Translations under genes and position numbers: made by a program
The notes under the pieces: model-generated
Database searches by the model: none
Seen by the model: the letters and a program-made list of their open reading frames with translations, nothing else
What the model was told of the DNA's origin: nothing
Part shown: positions 1-53,965 of the stretch, piece by piece
Layout of the letters: each line of letters opens with the position of its first letter
Position numbering within the stretch: the first letter of the stretch is position 1
DNA from: Candidatus Berkelbacteria bacterium
GTDB taxonomy: Bacteria > Patescibacteriota > UBA1384 > 2-12-FULL-50-11
DNA: 64,000 nt
Assembly: GCA_016432625.1 (NCBI GenBank)
Contig: CP066697.1
Location: 151,113-215,112 of the forward strand
Reading direction: 5' to 3'

Positions 1-118
1 GTTCTTGGTAAAAATTTTCGTCTTTTGCAGCGCGTAAAGTTACGAGCTCACTTGCGAGCTGTTCGCCAACGGCAATGCCAATAGCTTTGCGTCCGATATC
101 AAGCCCGAGATACTTCAT
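1..118 (-). CDS. ruvX: Putative Holliday-junction resolvase-like / pre-16S rRNA nuclease RuvX (YqgF) N-terminal fragment; the gene runs off the window start
   Basis: Reverse-strand translation from the ATG at 116-118 gives MKYLGLDIGRKAIGIAVGEQLASELVTL, the typical YqgF/RuvX N-terminal motif (LGLDxGxKxIGxAxxD). Only ~39 aa lie in the window. Confidence 0.55.
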   Translation of the reverse strand, partial: MKYLGLDIGRKAIGIAVGEQLASELVTLRAAKDENFYQE

Positions 119-17030: not shown

Positions 17031-18008
17031 ATGACAGATGTTTTAGTTATCGGTTCAGGTATGGCAGGGCTTTCAGCAGCGATTTACGCTGCTCGTTATA
17101 ATTTGGAAACGCTTGTTATTGGTCATGAGTTTGGCGGTGCCACCTCAACTGCTTGGACTATCGAGAACTATCCCGGCTACGTCTCAATCGATGGCTACGA
17201 CCTAATGATGAAGGTTAAAGAGCAGGCAGAAAAGACCGGCGCCAAGATTGTCACGGACCGAGTTATTAAACTCGAAAAGAAGAACGATCACTTCGTGGCT
17301 CAAACTTTTGAGGGCGAAATGTACGAAACTAAAACTATTATTCTTGCCTGTGGCGCGGCGCGAAAAAAAATGGGACTGGCACGTGAAGATGAGTTCGCAC
17401 TCGGAAAAGGCGTCCACTACTGCACTACCTGCGACGGCCCGCTCTACAAAGGCAAAACCGTCGCCGTAATCGGTAGCGGCGATTCGGCGGTCAAGGGTAT
17501 AAAGCTCGCCGTACAGTACGCTGAGAAAATTCACTGGCTAATCCGTGGTGAAGTTATTAAAGCCGAGCCGTTCAATTATGAAAAAGTTAAACACTACTTC
17601 GGCGACAAGATTATTGTTCACTACAACACGTCCATTACCGAGCTTTTGGGCGAGAAACGACTTAACGCCGTCAAGCTTAATACCGGTGAGACCCTAGAGC
17701 TTGATGGCTTGTTCGTTGAGATCGGCGCTCTTCCTGAAGTTGAGCTCGCTCACCACTTAGGCGCGGCGCTCGACGAGTTCGGTTTTATAAAAGTAGACAA
17801 CATGATGGAGACTAACGTTGATGGCATCTACGCTGCCGGCGACGTGACGAACTTTTTCGGCCACTTTAAGCAAGACATTACCGCCGCGGCAATGGGTTCA
17901 GTCGCCGCCACTAGCGCTTTTAAGCATATTCAACACGCCCCAACAGTCCAGGAGGCGAAAGCCACGCCCGCCGAGCAGCCATCAACGGTTAGTAATTTGA
18001 ATAAGTAG
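17031..18008 (+). CDS. trxB: Thioredoxin-disulfide reductase
   Basis: FAD motif VLVIGSGMAGLSAA; redox-active CTTCDG (CxxC); NADPH motif VAVIGSGDSAV. Confidence 0.85.
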   Translation: MTDVLVIGSGMAGLSAAIYAARYNLETLVIGHEFGGATSTAWTIENYPGYVSIDGYDLMMKVKEQAEKTGAKIVTDRVIKLEKKNDHFVAQTFEGEMYETKTIILACGAARKKMGLAREDEFALGKGVHYCTTCDGPLYKGKTVAVIGSGDSAVKGIKLAVQYAEKIHWLIRGEVIKAEPFNYEKVKHYFGDKIIVHYNTSITELLGEKRLNAVKLNTGETLELDGLFVEIGALPEVELAHHLGAALDEFGFIKVDNMMETNVDGIYAAGDVTNFFGHFKQDITAAAMGSVAATSAFKHIQHAPTVQEAKATPAEQPSTVSNLNK

Positions 18009-18117
18009 TGGGTCGGGTGGGGATTTCCTCCGCTGCGCTCCGGTATCCCCACCCTCTTGGCCAAGTGCAAAAACCGCCCATGAGGGCGGTCTCTGCATTG
18101 GTGGGTCGGGTGGGGAT
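18008..18117 (-). repeat. Two partial copies of the tRNA-Lys T-loop-to-3'-end segment (ATCCCCACCCGACCCAC) downstream of tRNA-Lys, each preceded by a related ~50-nt sequence; a rho-independent terminator lies between them at 18071..18096
   Basis: GTGGGTCGGGTGGGGAT occurs on the + strand at 18008-18024, 18101-18117 and 18235-18251 (the last inside the real tRNA). ACCGCCCTCATGGGCGGTTTTTTG reads as a terminator on the - strand. Confidence 0.7.
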
Positions 18118-18235
18118 CTCGCGCCTTCGGCGCTTGAAAGCTCCTTCGCTCACGCTCTGTCGCTATCGAACCCACTTCGTGCGTTCTCTCCCCACCACAA
18201 ACGAAAAAGCTGCCAAATGGCAGCGCTTCCGTTTG

Positions 18236-18307
18236 TGGGTCGGGTGGGGATCGAACCCACGACACACGGCTTAAAAGGCCGTTGTTCTACCACTGAACTA
18301 CCGACCC
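18236..18307 (-). tRNA. tRNA-Lys (anticodon TTT)
   Basis: GGGTCGG-TA-GTTCAGTGGTAGAAC-A-ACGGC-CTTTTAA-GCCGT-GTGTC-GTGGG-TTCGATC-CCCAC-CCGACCC-A. Confidence 0.85.
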
Positions 18308-18771: not shown

Positions 18772-19302
18772 TTAGTAATCGGAAGAACTTCTTGATTTCC
18801 CAAGTCCACCTGTCGCAATGAGCGCGATAAGCGGCGCTATCATCCACCATGGGGTGTGGCTAATAAAAATCCGGGCGATTCGTGAGTTCTGGGCGAACTG
18901 ATCCCGCGCCGCCGGATCCATAAACGAGAAAATGGCGGTTAAAATTAAGGCTGAATTTAAAAAACTAAAAATCGCCAGCTCAAAAGCCGAGAGTGCGCCG
19001 CGACCGCTTGAGCCTTTGCCCATACCGGAGCGGATCGAGACCAGTACCGTCGTTAACAAGAATATTCCCGCTGAAATTGTAAAAGGCGAGGCGTTGGCTT
19101 TAATGAATAGCTGGTTGCCGATTGTTTTATCGCCTTGGAAGAACTGCTGCAGCGGCGCGCCCAACACCTGCGCCATCACGATACCGGCGTAAATCGCCAG
19201 TAACGTCACCACAACCTTATCGCGCTGCAACACGAAGCTGTAGCCGATCGAAACGATGAAAAATATTGCTAAAAACAGATCCCAGCTTGGTACGGTTTGC
19301 AC
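18772..19302 (-). CDS. Hypothetical integral membrane protein (4-5 TM helices)
   Basis: 176 aa, multiple hydrophobic helices. Confidence 0.5.
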   Translation of the reverse strand: MQTVPSWDLFLAIFFIVSIGYSFVLQRDKVVVTLLAIYAGIVMAQVLGAPLQQFFQGDKTIGNQLFIKANASPFTISAGIFLLTTVLVSIRSGMGKGSSGRGALSAFELAIFSFLNSALILTAIFSFMDPAARDQFAQNSRIARIFISHTPWWMIAPLIALIATGGLGKSRSSSDY

Positions 19303-19351: not shown

Positions 19352-19957
19352 TTAGCGTTGCAGATTGCGGAGTTGCTCGTACAGATCACGTTCTTCGCGT
19401 GAGGGGCGCTTGGGGATTTCAATATGGATAACAACCGTCAAATCTCCCCGACCGCGGCGAGTTTGGGCGCCTTTGCCACGAAAACGAAAAGCCGCGCCTT
19501 CGGGTGTGCCGGGTGGAATCTTCAGCTCGATCTCATCGCCAAAATTGGTTTTGAAACGAACCGTGTCGCCAAGCACCGCTTGCGGGATCGAAACTGCCAA
19601 TTGAACCTGGACTTGAGAGAAGGCTGATTCGAACAAATCCTCAAAAATTGAGCCAAAACCTCCGCCGCCCTGACCACTAAAACTGCTGAAGTCGAAACCC
19701 CCAGCTTGACTCCCGAAACCGCTTTGGCTGCCAAAACCGGCTCCGGCCCGTGCCCCAGCGTGGCCGAACTGATCGTACTGGGCTCGTTTGTTTTTATCCC
19801 CCAGTACCTGGTAGGCCTCGTTTATTTCCTGGAACGCCGCCTTATCCCCACCTTTGTCGGGATGTAATTTGTGCGCTTTCGAACGGTAGGCCTTTTTAAT
19901 TTCGCCATCGCTGGCACCGCGGGGAACACCTAAAACTTCGTAAAAATCTCGAGCCAT
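19352..19957 (-). CDS. J-domain co-chaperone (DnaJ-like; J-domain plus Gly/Phe-rich region plus C-terminal domain, no zinc-finger)
   Basis: [35 protein letters not shown] with the HPD motif, then a GFGSQ-rich linker. Confidence 0.8.
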
Positions 19958-19982
19958 ATTTTCGATATTTTACCCTAAAAAT

Positions 19983-20000
19983 GTCAAGTTTGCTTTACAG
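19983..20000. promoter_or_regulatory. Copy of the 18-bp inverted repeat TGTCAAG-TTTG-CTTTACA (2 mismatches to TGTAAAG-N4-CTTTACA) in the divergent intergenic region between the J-domain gene and the ybjQ-like gene; overlaps a TTGACA -35-like hexamer (minus orientation) and sits just upstream of a TATAAT at 20001-20006
   Basis: Read directly: ...aaatgTCAAGtttgCTTTACAgagTATAATgaattcATG. Same half-sites as the dnaK promoter (26102-26119) and the XRE-Hsp20 gene promoter (51618-51635). Confidence 0.55.
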
Positions 20001-20014
20001 AGTATAATGAATTC

Positions 20015-20338
20015 ATGGATAAGGAAAATATTACAACCTCTTTTGAGCTACCGAATAAGAAAATTGTTAAAAATTTCGGCCTAGTCCGCGGCATAACCGT
20101 TCGCTCCCGATCGATTTTTGGGACAATCGGCGGCTCGCTGCAGACCATTCTTGGCGGCAATATCACCCTGTTTACCGAGCTGTGTGAGAAAACGCGCCAG
20201 GAAGCCTATGCCCTGATGGTCAAACACGCGGAAGAGATGGGCGCCAACGGCATTGTTATGGTTCGCTATGACGCCAACGAAGTTATGAGCGGTGTAACCG
20301 AAGTGCTCTGCTACGGCAGTGCAGTGGAGGTTGAATAA
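20015..20338 (+). CDS. YbjQ/UPF0145 family protein (heavy-metal-binding-like domain)
   Basis: 107 aa ending GANGIVMVRYDANEVMSGVTEVLCYGSAVEVE, the characteristic YbjQ C-terminal pattern. ATG only ~6 nt downstream of TATAAT, so possibly a leaderless transcript. Confidence 0.7.
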   Translation: MDKENITTSFELPNKKIVKNFGLVRGITVRSRSIFGTIGGSLQTILGGNITLFTELCEKTRQEAYALMVKHAEEMGANGIVMVRYDANEVMSGVTEVLCYGSAVEVE

Positions 20339-20565
20339 TGGACGAGGTAAAAAAAGTTAAAGTGAATATGCCTAGAGGCATTACGATCGTAAACCGTTAC
20401 AAAGGACCGGGCGGTGGCGCTTATTTCCTGGGTTTCCTAGGGGCTTTCATTTACTACATGCAAACGGCGGCTACTTTCGGCGATGGTGTTATCGGATTTC
20501 TAAAAGCCCTTGTCTGGCCGGCGTTTTTGGTTTATCACATCTATAAATTCTTGGGGCTCCAGTAG
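20338..20565 (+). CDS. Small membrane protein, translationally coupled to ybjQ-like (TAATGG overlap)
   Basis: 75 aa, two hydrophobic helices. Confidence 0.45.
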   Translation: MDEVKKVKVNMPRGITIVNRYKGPGGGAYFLGFLGAFIYYMQTAATFGDGVIGFLKALVWPAFLVYHIYKFLGLQ

Positions 20566-20574
20566 AATTTAGGC

Positions 20575-21240
20575 CTAAACCACCGATACCTCACCGTTTT
20601 CCACAACTAAATACGTTGCTACCGGGGGTTCGAATATCCCGGAATTTGCGAAATGGTTTTCCTTGTCAACGACTGCCAAATGGCTGTGAGCGCAAATTAG
20701 CCAGTGTTCTTTAGGCAAATTGGTGTTTTTCCAGGCAATCATCTTTTCGTTGTCCTTTCGGTAGATGTGTAAAAACGGCTTGCCGAAGTTTTGTATACAA
20801 AAGCGCTCAATTTTTACCGCGATCTCATAGAACCAGTAAAAATAGGCGATTCGAGGCAGGCGCATGTCTAAAGTCGGGGCAAGTTTGTCGCCATGGCGGA
20901 CATGGAACGTGACGCCGTTTTGAATAAAATCGTATTCGTTACTTGTCAAAACTGAAAACTCGTTCGTTCGCGAGTCATTTTTATATTCCCGGTCGTGGTT
21001 GCCGTAAAGGTAAACTGCCTCCTTGTTTTTGAATAAGCCAAAAAGCTTTCTCCAGTCGAAGGTTAGAAATTCTTCCAAAGTGTAAGCAAAACCTTCCCAA
21101 AGATCGCCGTTAATTATTAGCTTGTCAGCTGGACTCACGGCGCTATTAATTTGGGCGAATTTTATCTCGTTAAACTTTTTACCTAAATGTAAGTCGGAAA
21201 TTATTACCACCTTTTTCCCGCTGAGGTCTTCCGGTGTCAT
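20575..21240 (-). CDS. Calcineurin-like metallophosphoesterase
   Basis: SDLHLG, GDLWEG, GNHD and a later H motif. Classic metallophosphatase signature order. Confidence 0.7.
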   Translation of the reverse strand: MTPEDLSGKKVVIISDLHLGKKFNEIKFAQINSAVSPADKLIINGDLWEGFAYTLEEFLTFDWRKLFGLFKNKEAVYLYGNHDREYKNDSRTNEFSVLTSNEYDFIQNGVTFHVRHGDKLAPTLDMRLPRIAYFYWFYEIAVKIERFCIQNFGKPFLHIYRKDNEKMIAWKNTNLPKEHWLICAHSHLAVVDKENHFANSGIFEPPVATYLVVENGEVSVV

Positions 21241-21324
21241 TGCTTTGCAATTTTACTACAAAGCGGTCCAGCATAAGAGGAATGGGGAGGGTACAGGAAT
21301 CCGCCCGGCGAGTGCCGAGCGGAT

Positions 21325-22593: not shown

Positions 22594-24000
22594 TTATTCT
22601 TTGAGACCCATCTCGGACCGTATATCGCTAATAAAAGTCTTCGCTTTCTCTTCAAGTATATTTTGATCGGGCCTGACACTTGCTAGGAACAACTCGAAAT
22701 ATTTTAGTGCCTTAACTAGGTCGCGCAACTTTTTATAGGCAATGTAGCCAAGCCAAAAATGCAGTTGATTCCTATCAGGATAAGTTTCAAGGAGATTCAA
22801 ACAAAACTGTTCAACCTCTTGGATGGTAAGCCATTCTTCGGAATACTCATGCTCAACAATTTTCCTCGAGGACTTATAAGCCTCGTCGTATTCCGATAAC
22901 CAATAATGCAAAAATGCATCGCTGTACCTCCACTCCTGGGCTCCATTAGCTAAGTTCTTCGCAAGCGCGATTTCTTGTTGCGCCGCCTTCGCATCACCTT
23001 CCTTGAATAGTTCCACGGCTCTTACTAGATGAAAACCGTACTGATTAGGGTAATAACTCTGTGCTCTTTTCGAAAACGTTGAGTACGACGCTAGGTCATC
23101 CTTCAGTAAAGACATTCGTGCTTTTAGCAAATAACTACCTGCCAATAATTGTTTGGCCTTGATCTTTACTTCCTCAATATTTGGAGGTAAATCATTTCTT
23201 TGAAAAAGCTTATCGTCAATTAGGCGCTCGTGGAGGGTTATTGCGAGGTTGACGTCACCAGATAAGAATGCAGCAATACCTACTATGTACTTTGCCGATA
23301 AATAAACAAAATCAGCGGTTAAGGCGAACCCTCTAAATCGGAATTCTTCTAACATCTCCACTTCTTTAGGTAGGGATCTTACAAAGTCGGCAGATAATTT
23401 AAACTGACTGTTTTTGTCTATCGGTGAGTGCACTACTAAACCACTTAAATCAATAAAAATCTTTTCCTTTTCTCCATCAGGACGTTTTTTAACGTCTCCG
23501 AAGACGAAATAGTGTCCATGGACTGTCTCATTTATTGTTCGCGCAATTTCATAGTTTTTTACTTTCTCGGCAATATGGTTGGGTACTTTTACTACTGTGA
23601 CTAACTCACTCAATCCATCTGCGACTAAGTTTTTTCTTACCTGGTCAAGAAAGTCCTTTTTAGCATCTATTTCCTCGAGGTTATCCTCGCTGTAAAGCGC
23701 GAAAACTAATCCAAGCTTCCCCTCGGGTATTTTTGGAAGCCACTTCCTTACTACTATCCAAGCAACTATCTCAATTAAGAGTAATACTACGAGGCCCCAT
23801 CTTAGATAACTGACTCCAAAAAGTTCTAAGAGGGGTTTATAGATAGCCGCAAATATAATGCCCGTTAACACTACCGTGACTAATAATCCGCGAAAACTTG
23901 CAAAGTTAATTCTGATGTATGACAAATAGGGTCGCAGTTTATCAATTGGCATCAGCCTATAAAGAAAGAGAGCTGATAGCTCTCTTTCTTGTTTCTCCAA
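22594..24000 (-). CDS. Hypothetical membrane protein: two N-terminal TM helices plus a large helical/TPR-like cytoplasmic domain
   Basis: 468 aa. TM segments at ~35-85. C-terminal helical repeats (…YWLSEYDEAYK…FWLGYIAYKKL…). AT-rich. Stop abuts the dnaK stop region. Confidence 0.5.
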   Translation of the reverse strand: MEKQERELSALFLYRLMPIDKLRPYLSYIRINFASFRGLLVTVVLTGIIFAAIYKPLLELFGVSYLRWGLVVLLLIEIVAWIVVRKWLPKIPEGKLGLVFALYSEDNLEEIDAKKDFLDQVRKNLVADGLSELVTVVKVPNHIAEKVKNYEIARTINETVHGHYFVFGDVKKRPDGEKEKIFIDLSGLVVHSPIDKNSQFKLSADFVRSLPKEVEMLEEFRFRGFALTADFVYLSAKYIVGIAAFLSGDVNLAITLHERLIDDKLFQRNDLPPNIEEVKIKAKQLLAGSYLLKARMSLLKDDLASYSTFSKRAQSYYPNQYGFHLVRAVELFKEGDAKAAQQEIALAKNLANGAQEWRYSDAFLHYWLSEYDEAYKSSRKIVEHEYSEEWLTIQEVEQFCLNLLETYPDRNQLHFWLGYIAYKKLRDLVKALKYFELFLASVRPDQNILEEKAKTFISDIRSEMGLKE

Positions 24001-26004
24001 TTAGTCTTTTTTGTCCCCGTCATCTTTTGGTTCTTCCGGCACATTTGTGTCCGGGGTGCCATCCGCCTTCGCCGAGGCTTCGTCGGATGAATCGTCTTTG
24101 GGGAGTTCTTCTTCCGGCTTCGGCTGTCCCTCCTGCGCTGAAGCTTCCTCCTTCGCAGATGCTTCGGAGGACGAGTCGGCGGGCGAGTCATACATCGCGG
24201 CGCCGACTTTTTGGAGGGCGGCACTCAATTTTTCCGCCTCCTCTTTGATTTTGTCTTTATCGTCGTTGTGGATGACGGCTTTGACGGCGGTAACGGCGTC
24301 TTCGACTTCGCGTTTGTCGTCCGGTTTGATCTTATCGCCCGCGTCTTTGAGGGTTTTTTCGCTCAAGTGAATAAGGTTTTCGGCGGCGTTTCGTTCTTCG
24401 ACCAGCTCTTTTTTCTTGGCGTCGTCGGCGGCGTGAGCCTCGGCCTCGGTTTTCATCTTTTCGATCTCTTCTTTGGATAGCCCACTCGAAGCCGTAATGG
24501 TGATGTGTTGTTCTTTGGAAGTGGCTTTGTCTTTGGCTTTGACGTTCAGAATTCCGTTTGCGTCGATGTCAAACGTCACCTCAACTTGCGGGACGCCGCG
24601 GGGAGCCGGTGGAATACCATCGAGATGGAACTTACCTAGCGTCCGGTTGTCGGAGGCCATTGGCCTTTCGCCTTGTAAGACGTGGATTTCCACAGATGGC
24701 TGGTTGTCGCTGGCCGTGGAAAACGTTTCCGTTTTTGAAGCGGGAATAGTGGTATTGCGCTCAATGAGCGGCGTCATTACTCCACCCAGAGTTTCGAGAC
24801 CCAAGGTTAGCGGGGTGACGTCGAGCAGAAGAATATCCTTAACTTCGCCTGATAAGACGCCGCCGTTAATGGCCGCGCCTAAAGCAACCGCTTCGTCGGG
24901 GTTAACGCCTTTCGATGGCTCTTTGCCAAAAACATCTTTAACAACTTGCTGAATCATCGGCATGCGGGTCATCCCACCGACCAAGATAACTTCGTCAATG
25001 TCAGATTTGGTGAGTTTGGCGTCTTTCAAAGCGGCTTCGCAGATGCCTCGGGTTTTCTTGATGAGGTCGCCAACTAAACTTTCCAATTTTGCGCGCGACA
25101 GATTCATCTGCAGGTTTTTTGGACCGTCAGCGTCAGCGGTAATAAACGGCAAGTTGATCTCGGCTTCCTGGGTTTGAGAGAGCTCGATCTTGGCTTTTTC
25201 AGCTGCTTCTTTGACCCGTTGCATAGCCATAGCGTCGCCAGTTAGATCGACACCCTCTTTGGCTTTGAATTCGTCGACGATCCAGTTCATCACTTGAATG
25301 TCGATGTCGTCTCCACCGAGGTGAGTATCACCGTTCGTCGAGAGCACTTCGAAGCTGGATTCGCCTTTGTCTTCGCCAATTTCGATGATGGTGATATCAA
25401 ATGTTCCACCACCAAAGTCGTAAACGGCGACTTTCTGGTCTTTTTTGTCTTCTTTGTTAATGCCGTAGGCGAGAGCCGCGGCGGTTGGTTCGTTGATAAT
25501 GCGCTTAACTTCGAGGCCAGCAATGGTGCCGGCGTCTTTGGTAGCCTGGCGCTGGGAGTCGTTAAAGTATGCCGGGACGGTAATAACAGCGCCGTCGACT
25601 TTTTCGCCGAGATAAGCCTCGGCATCAGCTTTGATTTTGGCCAGGATCATTGAGGAGATTTCTTGGGGGGTAGACTCGTTTTCGGCCATTTTGACCTTAA
25701 CGCCATCGCCGCTCTTTACAATTTTGTAAGGCATCAGTTTGATGTCGCGCTGAACTTCTTCGTCAGTGAAGCTACGACCCATTAAGCGTTTAACAGAGTA
25801 GATAGTATTTTCCGGATTGGTGACAGCTTGGCGCTTGGCGAGCGTGCCAACAAGGCGTTCGCCTTTTTTATTGACCGCGACGATGGACGGCACTAAGTTG
25901 CCGCCCTCAGCGGTTGGGATCATTTTGGCTTTACCGCTTTCGATGACGGCTGAAGCCGAGTTAGTTGTTCCCAGGTCAATTCCGATTATCTTAGACATTT
26001 GCAC
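24001..26004 (-). CDS. dnaK: Chaperone DnaK (Hsp70)
   Basis: [18 protein letters not shown], the substrate-binding domain, and an acidic/Lys-rich C-terminal tail. GTG start at 26004 (an ATG two codons in is possible). Confidence 0.95.
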
Positions 26005-26095
26005 CCCATTCTATGTCTGAGATATCCAAAACGGTGTTTTTGATAATCTTTCCCATTTTGAGTAAGCTCTCCTCCTTAATTAGTCTATGTCTAAA

Positions 26096-26127
26096 GAAAA
26101 TTGTAAAGTTTCCTTTACATTTGTCAA
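26096..26127 (-). promoter_or_regulatory. dnaK promoter: TTGACA(-35)-N16-TACAAT(-10), with the 18-bp inverted repeat TGTAAAG-GAAA-CTTTACA (26102..26119) occupying the spacer and -10
   Basis: Gene orientation: cATTGACAaaTGTAAAGgaaaCTTTACAATtttc. Perfect 7-bp arms. Not CIRCE (TTAGCACTC-N9-GAGTGCTAA) and not HAIR (CTTGAGT-N7-ACTCAAG). Confidence 0.6.
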
Positions 26128-26217: not shown

Positions 26218-26967
26218 ATGACCCTTCGAGAAACTTTACAATCCAATCGCCAACCCGACGTCGCCCTGGCGGACGACGTCGCCTTCGCCGTGATCGACTC
26301 GATCCGCCCGTTGATGGGCGCTGAACCACCTCCGGCTCGCGTCGACGGCGACCAAAGCCAACGGATGCGCTCCGCCCGCCTGGCCTACTTCATGCTTCGA
26401 GAACGAAGCGCGCACCTCGACACCTGTTTGCGCGTCATCGGTTCGGAAGAATTTCCGGTCGATGTACTCATTGCCGACTTGAAGGATGCCGAAAAGCGAC
26501 TTCATGCTCGGGCTCACAACGAGAACCAGACACTTAGTTGGCTGGGTCTTGCCGCTGTCGATTTCGATACGGTACTGATAGATGGGAACCAGCACGTCGA
26601 CTTCGACAAAGTCGTTTGTTACGGTTCCGCGACGCAAGAACAAGCCTTCTTTGGCACGATCGCCGGCCTGATGCCGCGACTGGCGTCCGAGGACAACACA
26701 AGCTTCACTAGTCACCTAGCAAAGTCTCTGTGCGCGGCCACGCGCCAGAAGCTCTGCAACGACTGGAACGGTACTGAGCTTTGTCTTGATGCCACGGCGT
26801 TCGGCTTCGCGCTGGGAACACGCGACCTGTATAGGCAGGCACAGACCCTGGCGTTCGAAAACAAGGAGCCGCTGCAACTGGATCATTTCGGCCGAGCAAA
26901 AGGCTGGGAGTCTCTCGCGCTTTTCGCGAGCTATCCGACGATCCGCGCCGCTATCCTGCCCAAATAA
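26218..26967 (+). CDS. Hypothetical protein (GC-rich), inserted between grpE and dnaK on the opposite strand
   Basis: 249-aa ORF followed by a hairpin plus T-run at ~26985-27020. No recognisable domain. Confidence 0.5.
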   Translation: MTLRETLQSNRQPDVALADDVAFAVIDSIRPLMGAEPPPARVDGDQSQRMRSARLAYFMLRERSAHLDTCLRVIGSEEFPVDVLIADLKDAEKRLHARAHNENQTLSWLGLAAVDFDTVLIDGNQHVDFDKVVCYGSATQEQAFFGTIAGLMPRLASEDNTSFTSHLAKSLCAATRQKLCNDWNGTELCLDATAFGFALGTRDLYRQAQTLAFENKEPLQLDHFGRAKGWESLALFASYPTIRAAILPK

Positions 26968-27681: not shown

Positions 27682-28218
27682 TTACCCCTTTGAAACGCGG
27701 ACTTTGGCCGGTTTTATTACTTTGCCCTTAAGCATCCAGCCGGATTCAATTTCATCGATGACGGTTTCTGCTGGCAGGTCGCACGCTTCGTAGGAGATTG
27801 CTTCGTGCAAGTTATGATCGAAATGCGCCCCTTGGGTCGGAATGCGCGTCAGGCCGGCGTCGGCGACGATCGTTTCGAGCTGTTTTTCGATTTGGCGTAA
27901 ACCTTCAAAATAGGCGTGAATCTTTTGAAAAGCCTCTTCGCTTAAGGTTGTTTGGTCGTCGTCAAGTGAAATTGTCGGGGCGTGGGTTGAAGCGCGGTAG
28001 AAATTGTCCAGTACAGGGAAGAGTTTATGCAGCCAGTGGGCTAACGTCCGTTCCTCGAGCACGGCTCGGTCGTCGTGCATGCGCCGTTCTAGGTTAGAGT
28101 AATCCGCCGCCAAGCGTTTGCGACTGTTTTCGGCAGTTTCAAGTTTGGTCTTAATCTCGGCCAATTCTTTTTTGAGCTTATCGATTTCGTTGTCGTTTAA
28201 TTTCTTTTTAGGAGTCAT
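27682..28218 (-). CDS. grpE: Nucleotide exchange factor GrpE
   Basis: N-terminal coiled-coil (EIDKLKKELAEIKTKLE) and C-terminal FDHNLHEAISYE...GWMLKGKVIKPAKVRV, typical of GrpE. Confidence 0.85.
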   Translation of the reverse strand: MTPKKKLNDNEIDKLKKELAEIKTKLETAENSRKRLAADYSNLERRMHDDRAVLEERTLAHWLHKLFPVLDNFYRASTHAPTISLDDDQTTLSEEAFQKIHAYFEGLRQIEKQLETIVADAGLTRIPTQGAHFDHNLHEAISYEACDLPAETVIDEIESGWMLKGKVIKPAKVRVSKG

Positions 28219-28279
28219 GTCAGGAGTATTCTAAAAGACTTTTGTATTAACTTCCAGCCTAAGGTATTACGATTAAAGC

Positions 28280-34972: not shown

Positions 34973-37297
34973 GTGAACTTTATAACTAACGGCCAATACG
35001 TCGCGCAGGTTTCCCAGACAGGCGGCGGGCATTCGTTTATTGAAGACTCGGCCTATAACCGTATAACCAGGGAAATCCCGGGCGATAACCTCATCGAAGA
35101 CCGCCCCGGGCGTTACGTCTATATCCGCGACAACGATACCGGCGAGTATTGGGGCTTAACCTGGCAGCCGGTCATGAAGAAACTCGACCATTTTCAGACT
35201 CGTCACGGCATCGGCTACACCACCATTGAATCGTCGTACGACGGCATTGATGGCTCAATTACTTATTTCGTGCCACTTGAGGACCCGTGTGAGATCTGGC
35301 AGATCAAACTCAATAACTTTACAGAGCGCAAAAGGCGCCTAAGTATTTTTGTTTTCGTTGAATGGGATCTAGGCGTCAGACATGAAAATATCCTTGAGGC
35401 AGCCTTTAACGATTTGTTTAACGACATGATCTTTAAAGACAACACGATTTTCGCGACCAAACGGCGCTGGAACACTGCCGAGCGGGAGGGTCTGTATTGG
35501 GATAAAGTAGCGTTTCTGACTATGGATCATCAGGCGGATAGTTTTGACTGCATTAAAGAAAGATTCACCGGTATGTACGGTGACATTATTGCGCCGAAGG
35601 CTGTCATCGAAGGTAAATGCACCCGGAGTCAGGGATTAGGTCACCGCGCCGTTGGCGTTTTGCAGAAAAATATCACTCTCGGTCCGAAAGCGCCGGCGCA
35701 TTTCAACGTAATTCTCGGCGCTGGTTACACAAATCCCGAAGCAAAGAGCTTCGTTCAAGCCCAAACTTCGGGCATGCGTCACGCGGCCAAAATCATTGAA
35801 AAGTATCAGAAACCAAGCGCCATCGAACAAGCTTTTGAAGCTGTTCGCGCTCACTGGGAAGAGTATAACGGCCACGTTATGAGTAAATCGCCCGACCCGT
35901 TATTCGATTATTCATTTAATTATTGGAACAAGTATCAGTCTTGGATTACCAGCCACTGGTCTGAGATGGACACATATTATATCGGCGGCGGCGGCACGAT
36001 CGGTTTTCGAGACATGGCGCAGCACTTGATCGGCGTCATGCCAAACGATATCACCCTCGCTCGTAAACGTCTGCTCGAATTGCTCAGCTACCAATTCAAA
36101 GAGGGTCGTACAGTACATAACTGGGACAAGCTGACCAAGCGGGGTCATGTCACTGACCATTCCGACGACACTCAGTGGCTGATTACCTCAGTGTTGTTTT
36201 ACCTGAAAGAAACCGGCGACCTCAAATTCCTCAAAGAGGAAGTCGATTACTACGACACCGGACGGGCCACGATTTTACATCACGTCATTCGAGCGATGGA
36301 TTACAGCTTGAAGCACTTGTCCAGCCGCCATTTGCCGTATCGGATGAGCGCCGACTGGAACGACGCCCTAAATGGGGAACACGAGAGCAAAGGCGAGAGC
36401 CAGATGGTTGCTTGCCAGATTTGTTACAACATCCGCGAACTGGCGCCGTTCTTAAATGAGATCGGCGAGCACGAGTTGGTTGATAAATACCAGCGGATTT
36501 ATAAGAAAATAAAAGAATCTGTTAATCACTATCTTTGGGATGGCGGTTGGTACACTCGGGGTACCGCCAAAGACCATTCCGCTATTGGCTCAAAAAAGAG
36601 TAAAGCCAACAAGATCGATATTAACGCCCAAAGTTGGGCGGTGCTAAGCGGTGTTGCCGACAAGCCCCGCGGTATTAAGGCGATGGACGCGGTCTGGAAA
36701 CACCTCAACACCAAATACGGTCCGGCGATGTTTTTACCTTCATATCAACACCCAGAAGAACGCTACGGCGTGATCTCGCAATTTACGCCTGGCACTAAAG
36801 AGAACGGCGCTATCTTTAACCATCCGGTGGCCTGGGCGGTTATTGCTGAAACGGTTCTGGGGCGAGGGGATCACGCCTATAAGTTCTGGAAAGAGACGAG
36901 TTTCGCCTATCGAGGTCAGGAACCAGAGCTCTATCGCGTCGAGCCGTACGTCTACGCAGAGTTTGTTTACGGTCCGGAGCACCCGGAGTTTGGCCGAGGG
37001 TCTTTCACTTGGGCAACTGGTTCCGCCTCCTGGTTCTGGCGCGCCTGCTTAGATTACATCCTAGGTCTGCAGCCGGTTTTGGGTGGTTTGAAAATCGACC
37101 CATGCTTGCCCAAAGACTGGCGGCAGGTTGAGATCGGCCGCAAGTTCCGTGGTGCCGATTATCACATCCGGATTCAAAATCCGTTCCGCGTTAATCGTGG
37201 CGTTGACCGAATTCTCGTTGACGGCGTCAGAATTACCGGCAACGTTATCGCTCCGTTTAATTCCGGCGTCCACTTTGTCGAAGTAGTCTTAGGCTAA
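34973..37297 (+). CDS. GH94-family disaccharide phosphorylase (cellobiose/cellodextrin-phosphorylase-like). The true N-terminus probably lies upstream of the annotated GTG (see findings)
   Basis: Sequence just upstream in the same frame (EQYGEFSHQGDEYIIYRPDTPKPWVNFITNG) matches the conserved GH94 N-terminus (GxFDDxxREYVITxPxTPxPWINYLG). Followed by GYTTIESSYDGIDGSITYFVPL and the large (alpha/alpha)6 catalytic region. Confidence 0.75.
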   Translation: MNFITNGQYVAQVSQTGGGHSFIEDSAYNRITREIPGDNLIEDRPGRYVYIRDNDTGEYWGLTWQPVMKKLDHFQTRHGIGYTTIESSYDGIDGSITYFVPLEDPCEIWQIKLNNFTERKRRLSIFVFVEWDLGVRHENILEAAFNDLFNDMIFKDNTIFATKRRWNTAEREGLYWDKVAFLTMDHQADSFDCIKERFTGMYGDIIAPKAVIEGKCTRSQGLGHRAVGVLQKNITLGPKAPAHFNVILGAGYTNPEAKSFVQAQTSGMRHAAKIIEKYQKPSAIEQAFEAVRAHWEEYNGHVMSKSPDPLFDYSFNYWNKYQSWITSHWSEMDTYYIGGGGTIGFRDMAQHLIGVMPNDITLARKRLLELLSYQFKEGRTVHNWDKLTKRGHVTDHSDDTQWLITSVLFYLKETGDLKFLKEEVDYYDTGRATILHHVIRAMDYSLKHLSSRHLPYRMSADWNDALNGEHESKGESQMVACQICYNIRELAPFLNEIGEHELVDKYQRIYKKIKESVNHYLWDGGWYTRGTAKDHSAIGSKKSKANKIDINAQSWAVLSGVADKPRGIKAMDAVWKHLNTKYGPAMFLPSYQHPEERYGVISQFTPGTKENGAIFNHPVAWAVIAETVLGRGDHAYKFWKETSFAYRGQEPELYRVEPYVYAEFVYGPEHPEFGRGSFTWATGSASWFWRACLDYILGLQPVLGGLKIDPCLPKDWRQVEIGRKFRGADYHIRIQNPFRVNRGVDRILVDGVRITGNVIAPFNSGVHFVEVVLG

Positions 37298-50900: not shown

Positions 50901-51605
50901 CTACTTCTTCTTCACCTGAATCTTCGTGGTCTTCGGCTTAGCCGGTTCCACTTTCGGCGCCACTATCTTAAGCGTCCCGTTTTCGAGTTTGGCCTCAACC
51001 TTGTCTTCTTTGATCGGCGTGGCAAATCGAATTGAACGACTGAACTCACTGTGTTGCCACTCACGACGCACAACATTCTTGCCTTCTTTCTCATTTTCGT
51101 CGTGCTTTTTAGTGCCAGTGATAGTTAGTGTATCTTCCGTCATCTCGATCTGAACATCGTCTTCGGCGTAACCCGGAACCTGTAATTCGATTTCGTACTC
51201 TTTGTCGGTTTCATGAATATTCATGGCGCCGGCAACGGTGCCCAGTGCTCGCGACCAATCACCACGACCAAAATTACGGTTGACCATCTCGCTCATCTCT
51301 TCTTGCATTCGATCCATTGCCTGAAACGGACTCCATGGTGCTAATTGCATCTTCGACTGCTCACCTCCTTCCTGAATTTCGTTATCGGTTGCTTGCTGAA
51401 CAATGTTTATGCCTTCGATTAAATCCGGCAAATTACAGCGGAAAAATTCCATCAGTGAAATCAAAACTGGCGCGCTAGGCAGATACTCGCCACGTTCAAG
51501 CGAGATTATCGATTGGCGAGATACGTTTAATTCCCGAGCCAATTCTTCTTGGCTCAGATCTCGCTGGGTGCGTAACTGGCGTAGTAATAAACGGAATCGA
51601 GGCAT
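50901..51605 (-). CDS. Fusion protein: N-terminal XRE-family helix-turn-helix DNA-binding domain plus C-terminal Hsp20/alpha-crystallin (small heat-shock protein) domain; candidate novel heat-shock transcriptional repressor
   Basis: N-term LRQLRTQRDLSQEELARELNVSRQSIISLERGEYLPSAPVLISLMEFF (HTH_XRE). C-term ALGTVAGAMNIHETDKEYEIELQVPGYAEDDVQIEMTEDTLTITGTKKHDE...EWQHSEFSRSIRF...GTLKIVAPK (alpha-crystallin domain). Same operator in its own, dnaK and J-domain-gene promoters. Confidence 0.75.
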   Translation of the reverse strand: MPRFRLLLRQLRTQRDLSQEELARELNVSRQSIISLERGEYLPSAPVLISLMEFFRCNLPDLIEGINIVQQATDNEIQEGGEQSKMQLAPWSPFQAMDRMQEEMSEMVNRNFGRGDWSRALGTVAGAMNIHETDKEYEIELQVPGYAEDDVQIEMTEDTLTITGTKKHDENEKEGKNVVRREWQHSEFSRSIRFATPIKEDKVEAKLENGTLKIVAPKVEPAKPKTTKIQVKKK

Positions 51606-51611
51606 TTATAC

Positions 51612-51650
51612 GCCTAATGTAAAGTAAACTTTACATAGCGTCAAGGGAAA
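51612..51650 (-). promoter_or_regulatory. Promoter of the XRE-Hsp20 gene: TTGACG(-35)-N17-TACATT(-10), with the 18-bp inverted repeat TGTAAAG-TTTA-CTTTACA (51618..51635) over the spacer and -10
   Basis: Gene orientation: cCTTGACGctaTGTAAAGtttaCTTTACATTaggcgtataaATG. Same architecture as the dnaK promoter. Confidence 0.6.
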
Positions 51651-53578: not shown

Positions 53579-53965
53579 TGGTGGACCTGCCGGGAGTTGA
53601 ACCCGGGTCCGAGAACCTACGAACGAAGACGTCTACAAGCGTAGAAAGTTTAAAGTCTTAGCAGCTGGGCTTGAGAGCTTTCAAAAAACCCGACTGAGCA
53701 ACATCTTATTCTGAGGAGTTGTACCGATGTGCGCACAATCCCGGTTCTACTTTTTGACGCCTCGTTACCTTAGTAGAAGTCAGGTGACGAAACGGCATTG
53801 GCCGTTAGGCTAATGCTGTTGCAAAAGAAGGAGTCGCGAACAAGTTCGCAACACGAGCTTTTGCAGTTTCAAATGCGTTTGCACGTATTTGTTTTGCGCT
53901 CTAAGGCAGGCGCGTCCGCTTGCAGTCCTCGCTGTAAACGTTCCCGTCGAAGCCAGTACAGGCCC
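53579..53965 (-). ncRNA. ssrA: tmRNA (ssrA)
   Basis: The - strand 5' end is GGGCCTGTACTGGCTTCGACGGG (tRNA-Ala-like acceptor with G3·U70 wobble plus the conserved UUCGACGGG box). The 3' end is GGACCCGGGTTCAACTCCCGGCAGGTCCACCA (T-arm plus acceptor plus encoded CCA). Internal reading frame ...GCA ACA GCA TTA GCC TAA (tag ending ATALA*). Confidence 0.8.

Follow-up and report, generated by a model that had tools for sequence, protein, structure and literature searches.

The window analysed here, a 64-kb stretch of contig CP066697.1 from a Candidatus Berkelbacteria bacterium, contains a 57-nt gap between a gene for a J-domain co-chaperone (hereafter J) and a divergently oriented ybjQ-like gene. Within this gap lies the dyad TGTCAAGTTTGCTTTACA (TGTCAAG-TTTG-CTTTACA; 19982-19999), the third putative operator of a set whose other members belong to the dnaK promoter and to that of a gene whose product joins a helix-turn-helix (HTH) domain to a small heat-shock protein (sHSP). 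The three sites and the genes that they accompany are as follows.

19982..19999, no strand: putative operator 3, common to the divergent J-protein and ybjQ promoters; its C variant is the commonest tolerated deviation
26102..26119, no strand: putative operator 1, a perfect palindrome in the dnaK promoter, sequence TGTAAAGTTTCCTTTACA
51618..51635, no strand: putative operator 2, a perfect palindrome in the HTH-sHSP promoter, upstream of 50901-51605
19352..19957, minus strand: J-domain co-chaperone gene, 201 aa (DnaJ 1.4e-23; DnaJ_C 1.1e-12, profile positions 78-152 only)
20015..20338, plus strand: ybjQ-like gene (YbjQ_1 / UPF0145), 107 aa (YbjQ_1 1.3e-27)
20338..20565, plus strand: gene for a small predicted membrane protein, 75 aa, its start overlapping the ybjQ stop
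24001..25998, minus strand: dnaK (Hsp70), the true start being the ATG at 25998
50901..51605, minus strand: HTH-sHSP gene, the candidate repressor, 234 aa (HTH_3 9.8e-15; HSP20 8.1e-21)

The J protein consists of a J domain with an HPD motif, a Gly/Phe-rich linker and a partial DnaJ_C domain, and it belongs to a family of short (~200-aa) J proteins that is conserved in Berkelbacteria and other Patescibacteria. A family search of the translation revealed no zinc-finger domain; this, the partial DnaJ_C match and scores below the cut-offs of the DnaJ equivalog models led us to reject a canonical type I DnaJ. The 75-aa protein downstream of ybjQ had no family match and reached the cut-off of no NCBIfam model, and the overlap of its start with the ybjQ stop makes co-transcription of the two genes likely.

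A preliminary description of this DNA had reported the gap site at 19983-20000; the sequence is present as described, and its true position is one base to the left, at 19982-19999. Its agreement with the dnaK site (26102-26119) at 16 of 18 positions was also correct, the two differences being a C in place of A at half-site position 4 and, in the spacer, a G in place of C at position 11. Measured against the consensus dyad TGTAAAG-N4-CTTTACA, the only departure is one half-site mismatch, the C at position 4. The consensus is composed of two 7-bp half-sites, TGTAAAG and CTTTACA, with their centres 11 bp apart, about one helical turn. When at most one mismatch was allowed the window gave exactly three matches (starting at 19982, 26102 and 51618), and 100 dinucleotide-preserving shuffles gave none. 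At up to three mismatches the number of motifs in the window was at chance level and not above it, so that the signal rests on the three near-perfect copies.

The signature of the motif was derived from 46 unique sites pooled from J loci, fusion-gene loci and the window. Half-site positions 2, 3, 5, 6 and 7 are invariant (2 bits) over all 46; position 1 is T in 82/90 half-sites, and position 4 is A in 84/90 and C in the other 6. The 4-nt centre is A/T-rich with an information content of 0.5-0.6 bits, and the flanks do not exceed 0.9 bits. The C at position 4 that marks the gap site recurs at J sites L004, L010 and L011 and at fusion-gene sites L093 and L099, while 31 of the 42 sites from J and fusion-gene loci are perfect. 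As a control, 1.14 Mb of DnaJ loci drawn almost entirely from outside the Patescibacteria contained no site at one mismatch or fewer, a comparison weakened by the GC-richness of those loci. Three sites were found in 309 kb of other XRE-HTH loci, which have a similar AT content, and two of these are upstream of HTH genes with the recognition helix of the fusion family. The HTH fragments L101 and L103 carry that helix, SRQSIISLE, and have the operator upstream; none of the 44 XRE-HTH loci without it, most of them probably from other phyla, has an operator upstream.

Conservation was followed at the J gene by a scan of one genome per species, which supplied 17 true orthologues of the 201-aa protein (52-76% identity) from Berkelbacteria and related Patescibacteria. 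The palindrome, with 0-2 mismatches, is at the promoter of J, or of a two-gene operon of a calcineurin-like phosphoesterase and J (phosphoesterase-J), in 14 of the 17 loci. The J genes of the remaining three (L014, L015, L016) directly follow dnaK; a perfect operator is found upstream of that dnaK in L014 and L015, and in L016, where the upstream open reading frame (ORF) ends as a DnaK C-terminus, the region upstream of dnaK is off the contig. The operator stays with J through four gene arrangements. The layouts recorded at the loci were these.

ybjQ <- operator -> J: the window, L004, L010
ybjQ or small membrane-protein gene <- operator -> phosphoesterase-J: L001, L005, L006, L007
operator -> J or phosphoesterase-J, neither ybjQ nor the small membrane-protein gene diverging from it: L002, L003, L008, L012, L013, L017
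separate operators next to ybjQ and next to J: L009
small membrane-protein gene <- operator -> J: L011

The divergent partner is ybjQ or the small membrane-protein gene in eight loci (L001, L004-L007, L009-L011), the gene next to the operator being ybjQ in L001, L004, L006, L009 and L010 and the small membrane-protein gene in L005, L007 and L011, as would be expected of an operator that serves both transcription units. The earlier proposal that a third operator of the dnaK type ties J, and possibly the ybjQ/small-membrane-protein pair, to one regulon thus gains strong support from phylogenetic footprinting (14/17 J loci; eight divergent loci). In L009 (1195-1344) the two operators are 26 nt from ybjQ and 15 nt from J, with a GC-rich hairpin (CCGCACT...AGTGCGG) between them, and the arrangement resembles the shared operator of the window divided in two. 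The window has a calcineurin-like phosphoesterase gene of its own (20575-21263, minus strand), parted from J by the oppositely oriented cassette of ybjQ and the small-protein gene. Its promoter reads TAAAAT-N9-ATG (TAAAAT at 21255->21250); all that stands before it is a degenerate half-site, CTTTGTA (21263->21257), and the gene seems to have lost its operator.

Within the 57-nt gap the following promoter elements were predicted.

20003..20008, plus strand: TATAAT, -10 box for ybjQ, with 3 nt between it and the operator and 6 nt between it and the ATG at 20015
19981..19986, plus strand: ATGTCA, resembling a weak -35 box, with a 16-nt spacer to TATAAT and overlapping the left half-site; 10/12 consensus matches
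19967..19972, minus strand: TAAAAT, the conserved -10 box of the J promoter, 9 nt from the operator on one side and 9 nt from the J ATG on the other

On the ybjQ side the order on the plus strand is operator-gag-TATAAT-N6-ATG, with the TATAAT where it had previously been placed, 6 nt from the ybjQ-like ATG (20015). A Shine-Dalgarno sequence is absent on both sides, and the -10 boxes lie 6-10 nt from the start codons. Most orthologues have a -10-like hexamer 6-9 nt from the start of ybjQ or of the small membrane-protein gene, again without a Shine-Dalgarno sequence. This geometry supports the leaderless ybjQ transcript suggested in the preliminary description, and our best reading is that the transcript is leaderless or nearly so, with a predicted start at ~20015. 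On the other side the block operator-TTTTTnrGG-TAAAAT-N6-10-ATG recurs in L001-L005, L007 and L011, TAAAAT being found at other distances in L010 and L012, and the TAAAAT-N9-ATG geometry of the window suggests that the J transcript is leaderless too. The hexamer TTGACA is indeed present on the minus strand (19987->19982), where it had been taken for the -35 box of the J gene; this assignment was not borne out. Its sole partner at canonical spacing, GAAAAT at 18 nt, abuts the ATG and is missing in the orthologues, the conserved TAAAAT stands at a distance of no more than 9 nt, and the half-site reads TTTACA in most orthologues. The centre of the operator, at ~19990.5, is at about -25 from the predicted ybjQ start and about -31 to -33 from the predicted J start, so that one bound dimer should exclude RNA polymerase from both promoters.

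The two perfect palindromes have a different setting. At dnaK the minus strand carries TTGACA (26127->26122), 2 nt (aa), the operator and a -10 box, TACAAT (26105->26100), which overlaps the last 4 nt of the operator; the layout cTTGACAaa-operator-at/tt is also found upstream of dnaK in L005, L007, L008, L011, L014 and L015. The HTH-sHSP promoter, likewise on the minus strand, consists of TTGACG (51644->51639), 3 nt (cta), the operator and a -10 box, TACATT (51621->51616), overlapping the end of the operator, with the ATG 10 nt after it. Both promoters have ordinary 16-18-nt spacing with the operator over the spacer and the -10 box, which is the layout of a repressor and not of a MerR-like activator.

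These promoters bear on whether the palindrome is a protein-binding site at all. Its halves might be back-to-back -35-like hexamers, or the whole might form a DNA or RNA hairpin or be a chance resemblance: TTGACA and TTTACA do look like -35 hexamers, TTGACA finds a partner in GAAAAT in a consensus scan as noted above, and the motif is no commoner than chance when three mismatches are tolerated. We consider this highly improbable, given that the stricter search found nothing in the shuffled sequences and that the dyad is also present at the unidirectional dnaK and fusion promoters, where it stands between a separate TTGACA-type -35 box and the -10 box. Sigma-70 promoters need no conserved sequence in the spacer between these boxes. 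Dozens of lineages retain the strict dyad symmetry while the 4-nt centre varies. The element would be upstream of both predicted leaderless starts, and untranscribed, provided that these are correct, and no Rfam family matched at the 19982 site. With no more than one half-site mismatch, a 4-nt spacer, overlap with core promoters predicted from the sequence and conservation at orthologous genes, 19982-19999 is very likely to be a functional, conserved operator.

The asymmetry of the gap raises the further question of which genes the site serves. It could, with a genuine operator and HTH-sHSP regulator, control only ybjQ or only J, or could even activate the J promoter, since on the J side the operator occupies the position of a class II activator site (about -39 to -22) at a promoter with no recognisable -35 box, and the distance from operator to -10 box differs between the two sides (3 nt against 9 nt). 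In L009, however, each gene has a separate operator, which points to both as targets, and elsewhere J is found behind operator-G-TATAAT (L008, L009, L013) or behind dnaK (L014-L016). The dnaK and fusion promoters, with the operator over the -10 box, have the layout of repression, and it would be physiologically odd for DnaK and its J partner to be controlled in opposite directions. Control of one gene only, or activation, is accordingly judged to be quite improbable, and repression of both divergent units is preferred.

The candidate regulator is the 234-aa product of 50901-51605. It contains an HTH of the XRE/Cro-C1 type at residues ~4-66 and, after a linker, an sHSP N-terminal region, an alpha-crystallin domain and a C-terminal I-x-V motif; both Pfam matches exceed the gathering thresholds (HTH_3, 54.8 bits against a cut-off of 23; HSP20, 74.5 bits against 20.8). 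An AlphaFold model built on a 35-sequence alignment has a confident helical domain at ~1-66 (predicted local distance difference test, pLDDT, ~90), a low-confidence linker at 69-90 that is probably flexible, a low-confidence helix at 93-111 and a confident beta-sandwich from ~128. Foldseek matched the C-terminal domain to the solved sHSPs S. pombe Hsp16 (3w1z), wheat HSP16.9 (1gme) and M. jannaschii Hsp16.5, and the nearest solved HTH chains were a PbsX-family regulator, CylR2 and DdrO. Sequence matches to the sHSPs 5nms and 7bzw begin at residue ~89, so the sHSP N-terminal region is present as well. In the alignment the recognition helix SRQSIISLE is invariant and I229 and V231, of the I-x-V motif, are near-invariant. 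By its domains and predicted fold the protein is a complete sHSP to which an N-terminal HTH has been added.

The family is sizeable: 56 of the 50%-identity representatives match at E <= 1e-30, including a few multi-HTH proteins or fragments, and among the best 150 matches there are several dozen further single-stretch full-length proteins of ~200-260 aa. No curated NCBIfam model reaches its cut-off for the fusion protein. Two relatives of ~150 aa (P0099, P0104) that seemed to have HSP20 only were considered as stand-alone sHSPs and rejected, L148 being cut by the contig end and L149 a mis-called fusion. L149 encodes the full HTH-sHSP in frame, with an upstream operator, and its annotated start is the conserved internal methionine M86 ('MQLxPW') with which the sHSP part begins.

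All 27 distinct fusion-gene loci that were checked, with identities of about 31-86% where measured, have the operator in the promoter of the fusion gene itself. They include other 50%-identity clusters, and the layout is TTGACn-N2-4-operator with a -10 box overlapping the operator end. In a metagenome scan the dyad was found at 20/20 full-length fusion loci (31-76% identity), 17 times perfect and three times with one mismatch; the overlapping -10 box is TACATT or TACAAT in most of these 20. Four fusion genes of other clusters (L150/151, L152, L153, L154), in which the helix differs after SRQ, also carry the operator, and the SRQ start of the helix is conserved in nearly all listed family members. 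Two of the more divergent fusion genes checked (L153, 1-1349; L154, 2295-3681) adjoin genes for ClpB-like disaggregases and have the operator in their own promoters.

The operator was assigned to the HTH-sHSP protein on the grounds of the 7-4-7 dyad with its 11-bp centre distance, the presence of the operator at the fusion promoters and the specificity linked to the recognition helix; from these sequence features we consider it quite likely that the protein binds the operator and is hence autoregulated. A different transcription factor might instead bind what would still be a genuine chaperone-regulon operator, the HTH-sHSP gene being merely another target. Heat-shock regulons typically include sHSP genes, so that autoregulation does not follow from an operator ahead of such a gene; changes of the recognition helix in distant fusions are not matched by changes of the operator, and the view of the genome is limited to 64 kb. 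This alternative is nevertheless unlikely, as the association of operator and fusion gene holds at every one of the 27 loci down to ~31% identity and is accompanied by the retained SRQ start of the helix, while the geometry of the dyad fits a dimer of a Cro/C1-type HTH. Moreover, no operator of the CIRCE, HAIR, CtsR or RheA type lies near the chaperone genes of the window.

With the HTH-sHSP protein as repressor, the following circuit is proposed. A dimer would bind the operator and block RNA polymerase. In the dnaK and fusion promoters the operator would act by filling the spacer between the -35 and -10 boxes and overlapping the latter; at 19982-19999 a single operator would extend across the -35 and spacer regions of two divergent, probably leaderless promoters, so that one dimer could repress both the rightward promoter, which would serve ybjQ and the small membrane-protein gene, and the leftward promoter of the J-domain co-chaperone gene. 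sHSPs bind unfolding proteins and change their oligomeric state with temperature. Under heat or proteotoxic stress, unfolding proteins would capture the sHSP part, or its oligomeric state would change, and the HTH would leave the DNA. Derepression would then yield more DnaK, J protein, YbjQ and fusion protein, and DnaK with its J protein would clear the clients bound to the sHSP, freeing the repressor and closing the loop. Control by heat or unfolded proteins is suggested by the identity of the target genes. Whether the sHSP moiety is the stress sensor, as the titration of IbpA would lead one to expect by analogy, we put at about an even chance. The scheme as a whole, a shared operator at two divergent leaderless promoters, repression by HTH-sHSP and release under stress, is probably correct, its binding protein, sign of regulation and stress signal being those that we infer.

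Several points weigh against this scheme. The identity of the regulator, the sign of the regulation and the heat response are all deductions from sequence. The helices of distant family members vary (e.g. SRQTIFLLE, SRQSVNALE) while the operator is unchanged; there is thus no proof by co-variation that factor and site form a pair, and the comparison is evidence neither for nor against it. The motif scan covered the 64-kb window out of a contig of ~769 kb, and another regulator may be encoded elsewhere. The information content of the signature is somewhat inflated, because resemblance to the consensus governed the choice of sites for the matrix. The J promoter has no recognisable -35 box and its mechanics are less clear. 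Finally, grpE (27682-28218, minus strand), ~1.7 kb from dnaK, has no operator in its upstream region (28219-28279), so that the regulon does not span the whole DnaK system and grpE appears to be outside it in this genome.

The logic of the proposed circuit, negative control through a palindrome with coupling to chaperones, resembles that of HspR/HAIR, HrcA/CIRCE, RheA and CtsR; its motif and its protein family match none of these. CIRCE had no match in the window at up to four mismatches, and the HAIR, CtsR and RheA patterns matched only with 2-3 mismatches and away from 19982, 26102 and 51618. The HAIR consensus, recognised by HspR in Streptomyces, Helicobacter and Deinococcus, is CTTGAGT-N7-ACTCAAG. 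HspR is, like the regulator proposed here, an autoregulated repressor of a dnaK operon that acts at an inverted repeat over the promoter, with feedback from chaperone availability; its operators in H. pylori have been described (PMC6102357, PMC6032397). It differs in belonging to the MerR family and in requiring DnaK in trans as its co-repressor, whereas here an XRE/Cro-C1 HTH is fused to an sHSP, and the motif is TGTAAAG-N4-CTTTACA with no HAIR-like site near the chaperone genes of the window. The CIRCE element, bound by HrcA, has the consensus TTAGCACTC-N9-GAGTGCTAA. HrcA, like the proposed regulator, exerts negative, palindrome-based control, over the dnaK and groE operons, and is modulated by a chaperone (GroEL); it has also been described as a thermosensor (PMC8533110). 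Repressor family, motif and half-site spacing (9-N9-9 in CIRCE) are all different from those found here.

RheA of Streptomyces albus represses hsp18 through the operator TGTCATC-N5-GATGACA. Like the candidate proposed here, it is a dedicated, autoregulated repressor linked to an sHSP gene, with a short inverted repeat that begins TGTCA, and is an intrinsic thermosensor. The RheA protein is, however, separate from Hsp18 and controls only hsp18 and rheA; motif and spacing differ, and its weak matches in the window (2-3 mismatches) are apparently unrelated. Among phage-type Cro/C1 repressors, which include 434 cI, P22 c2 has an 18-bp operator with an AAG-N4-CTT core. The likeness extends to the HTH family, the 18-bp dyad with 7-bp half-sites, a 4-bp A/T-rich centre that is probably not contacted, and the promoter occlusion proposed here. 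Those repressors have dedicated C-terminal dimerisation domains and are subject to RecA-mediated or protease cleavage, whereas in the fusion protein the C-terminal module is a complete sHSP and the predicted targets are chaperone genes.

For the proposed sensing step the closest mechanistic precedent would be IbpA. In E. coli this sHSP represses translation of its own gene and of rpoH and is titrated by aggregates (bioRxiv 10.1101/2020.04.20.050740; PMC10474464; PMC10410725). As in the present proposal, an sHSP represses and is drawn away by aggregates, which induces the sHSP itself and the heat-shock response in proportion to the stress. IbpA, unlike the fusion protein with its HTH and DNA operator, has no DNA-binding domain and acts on translation at the 5' untranslated regions of messenger RNAs, whereas several of the targets here appear to be leaderless. 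A search of the full-text literature, in which subscription journals were thinly covered, found no description of an HTH-sHSP regulator, of this motif or of heat-shock operators in the Candidate Phyla Radiation, and a preprint on the TM7x transcriptome contained nothing relevant to them; the reports on IbpA were the sole papers with a related concept.

The surroundings of dnaK have some further features. Between the dnaK promoter and its ATG there is a 15-codon upstream ORF (MGKIIKNTVLDISDI, followed by a stop; 26007-26054, minus strand) with a strong AAGGAGG ahead of it; its initial residues imitate those of DnaK, and it has the look of a remnant left by duplication of the dnaK 5' end, or of a leader peptide. 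In L005, L007 and L011 a GGAGG directly precedes dnaK and no such ORF is found. Immediately after the dnaK stop begins a 468-aa ORF (22594-24000, minus strand), which is for that reason probably co-transcribed with dnaK; it has a faint TPR match only, no NCBIfam match and a GC content of 0.39-0.42, markedly lower than that of dnaK (0.49-0.54). Divergent from dnaK is a 249-aa ORF (26218-26967, plus strand) that has no Pfam match and is overlapped by long antisense ORFs. Its GC content of 0.58 is the maximum of the neighbourhood (0.42-0.52 elsewhere), and it may be of foreign origin.

Elsewhere in the window, three direct copies of a 21-nt sequence (GTGGGTCGGGTGGGGATC core) are found at 18005, 18098 and 18232 (18005-18252), the last overlapping the low-coordinate end of a tRNA-Lys(ttt) gene (18235-18307, minus strand). 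The two extra copies look like remnants of the tRNA end and are possibly integration scars. The ~460 nt between tRNA-Lys and the gene at 18772-19302 had no Rfam match. A GH94 glycoside phosphorylase of the cellobiose/chitobiose-phosphorylase type is encoded at 34973-37297 of this small genome of the Candidate Phyla Radiation, and a tmRNA with the tag peptide ANAFETAKARVANLFATPSFATALA lies at 53579-53965.

From the literature searched, heat-shock regulation in the Candidate Phyla Radiation appears to be undescribed, as apparently is an HTH-sHSP fusion acting as a regulator, and the known systems (sigma-32, HrcA/CIRCE, HspR/HAIR, CtsR and RheA) left no trace in the window. The site at 19982 turns a motif at dnaK and one other gene into a putative regulon, to which it adds the J partner of DnaK as well as ybjQ and the small membrane-protein gene. 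The operator is near-invariant across the family down to ~31% identity and could thus be used as a marker for stress regulons in uncultivated genomes. That HTH-sHSP proteins are one-component sensors of proteotoxic stress and master repressors of chaperone genes across a large part of the Candidate Phyla Radiation can be put forward only tentatively, at somewhat less than even odds. Such a protein would be a compact and easily testable case of a chaperone that directly gates transcription, a counterpart at the DNA level of translational control by IbpA. If the scheme is true, chaperone and repressor would be one polypeptide in a transcriptional heat-shock circuit that acts largely on leaderless genes. 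The predicted, conserved co-regulation with chaperones is a first functional lead for ybjQ (UPF0145) and for the small membrane-protein gene, and would, on the same condition, place the YbjQ/UPF0145 family and the small membrane protein in proteostasis.

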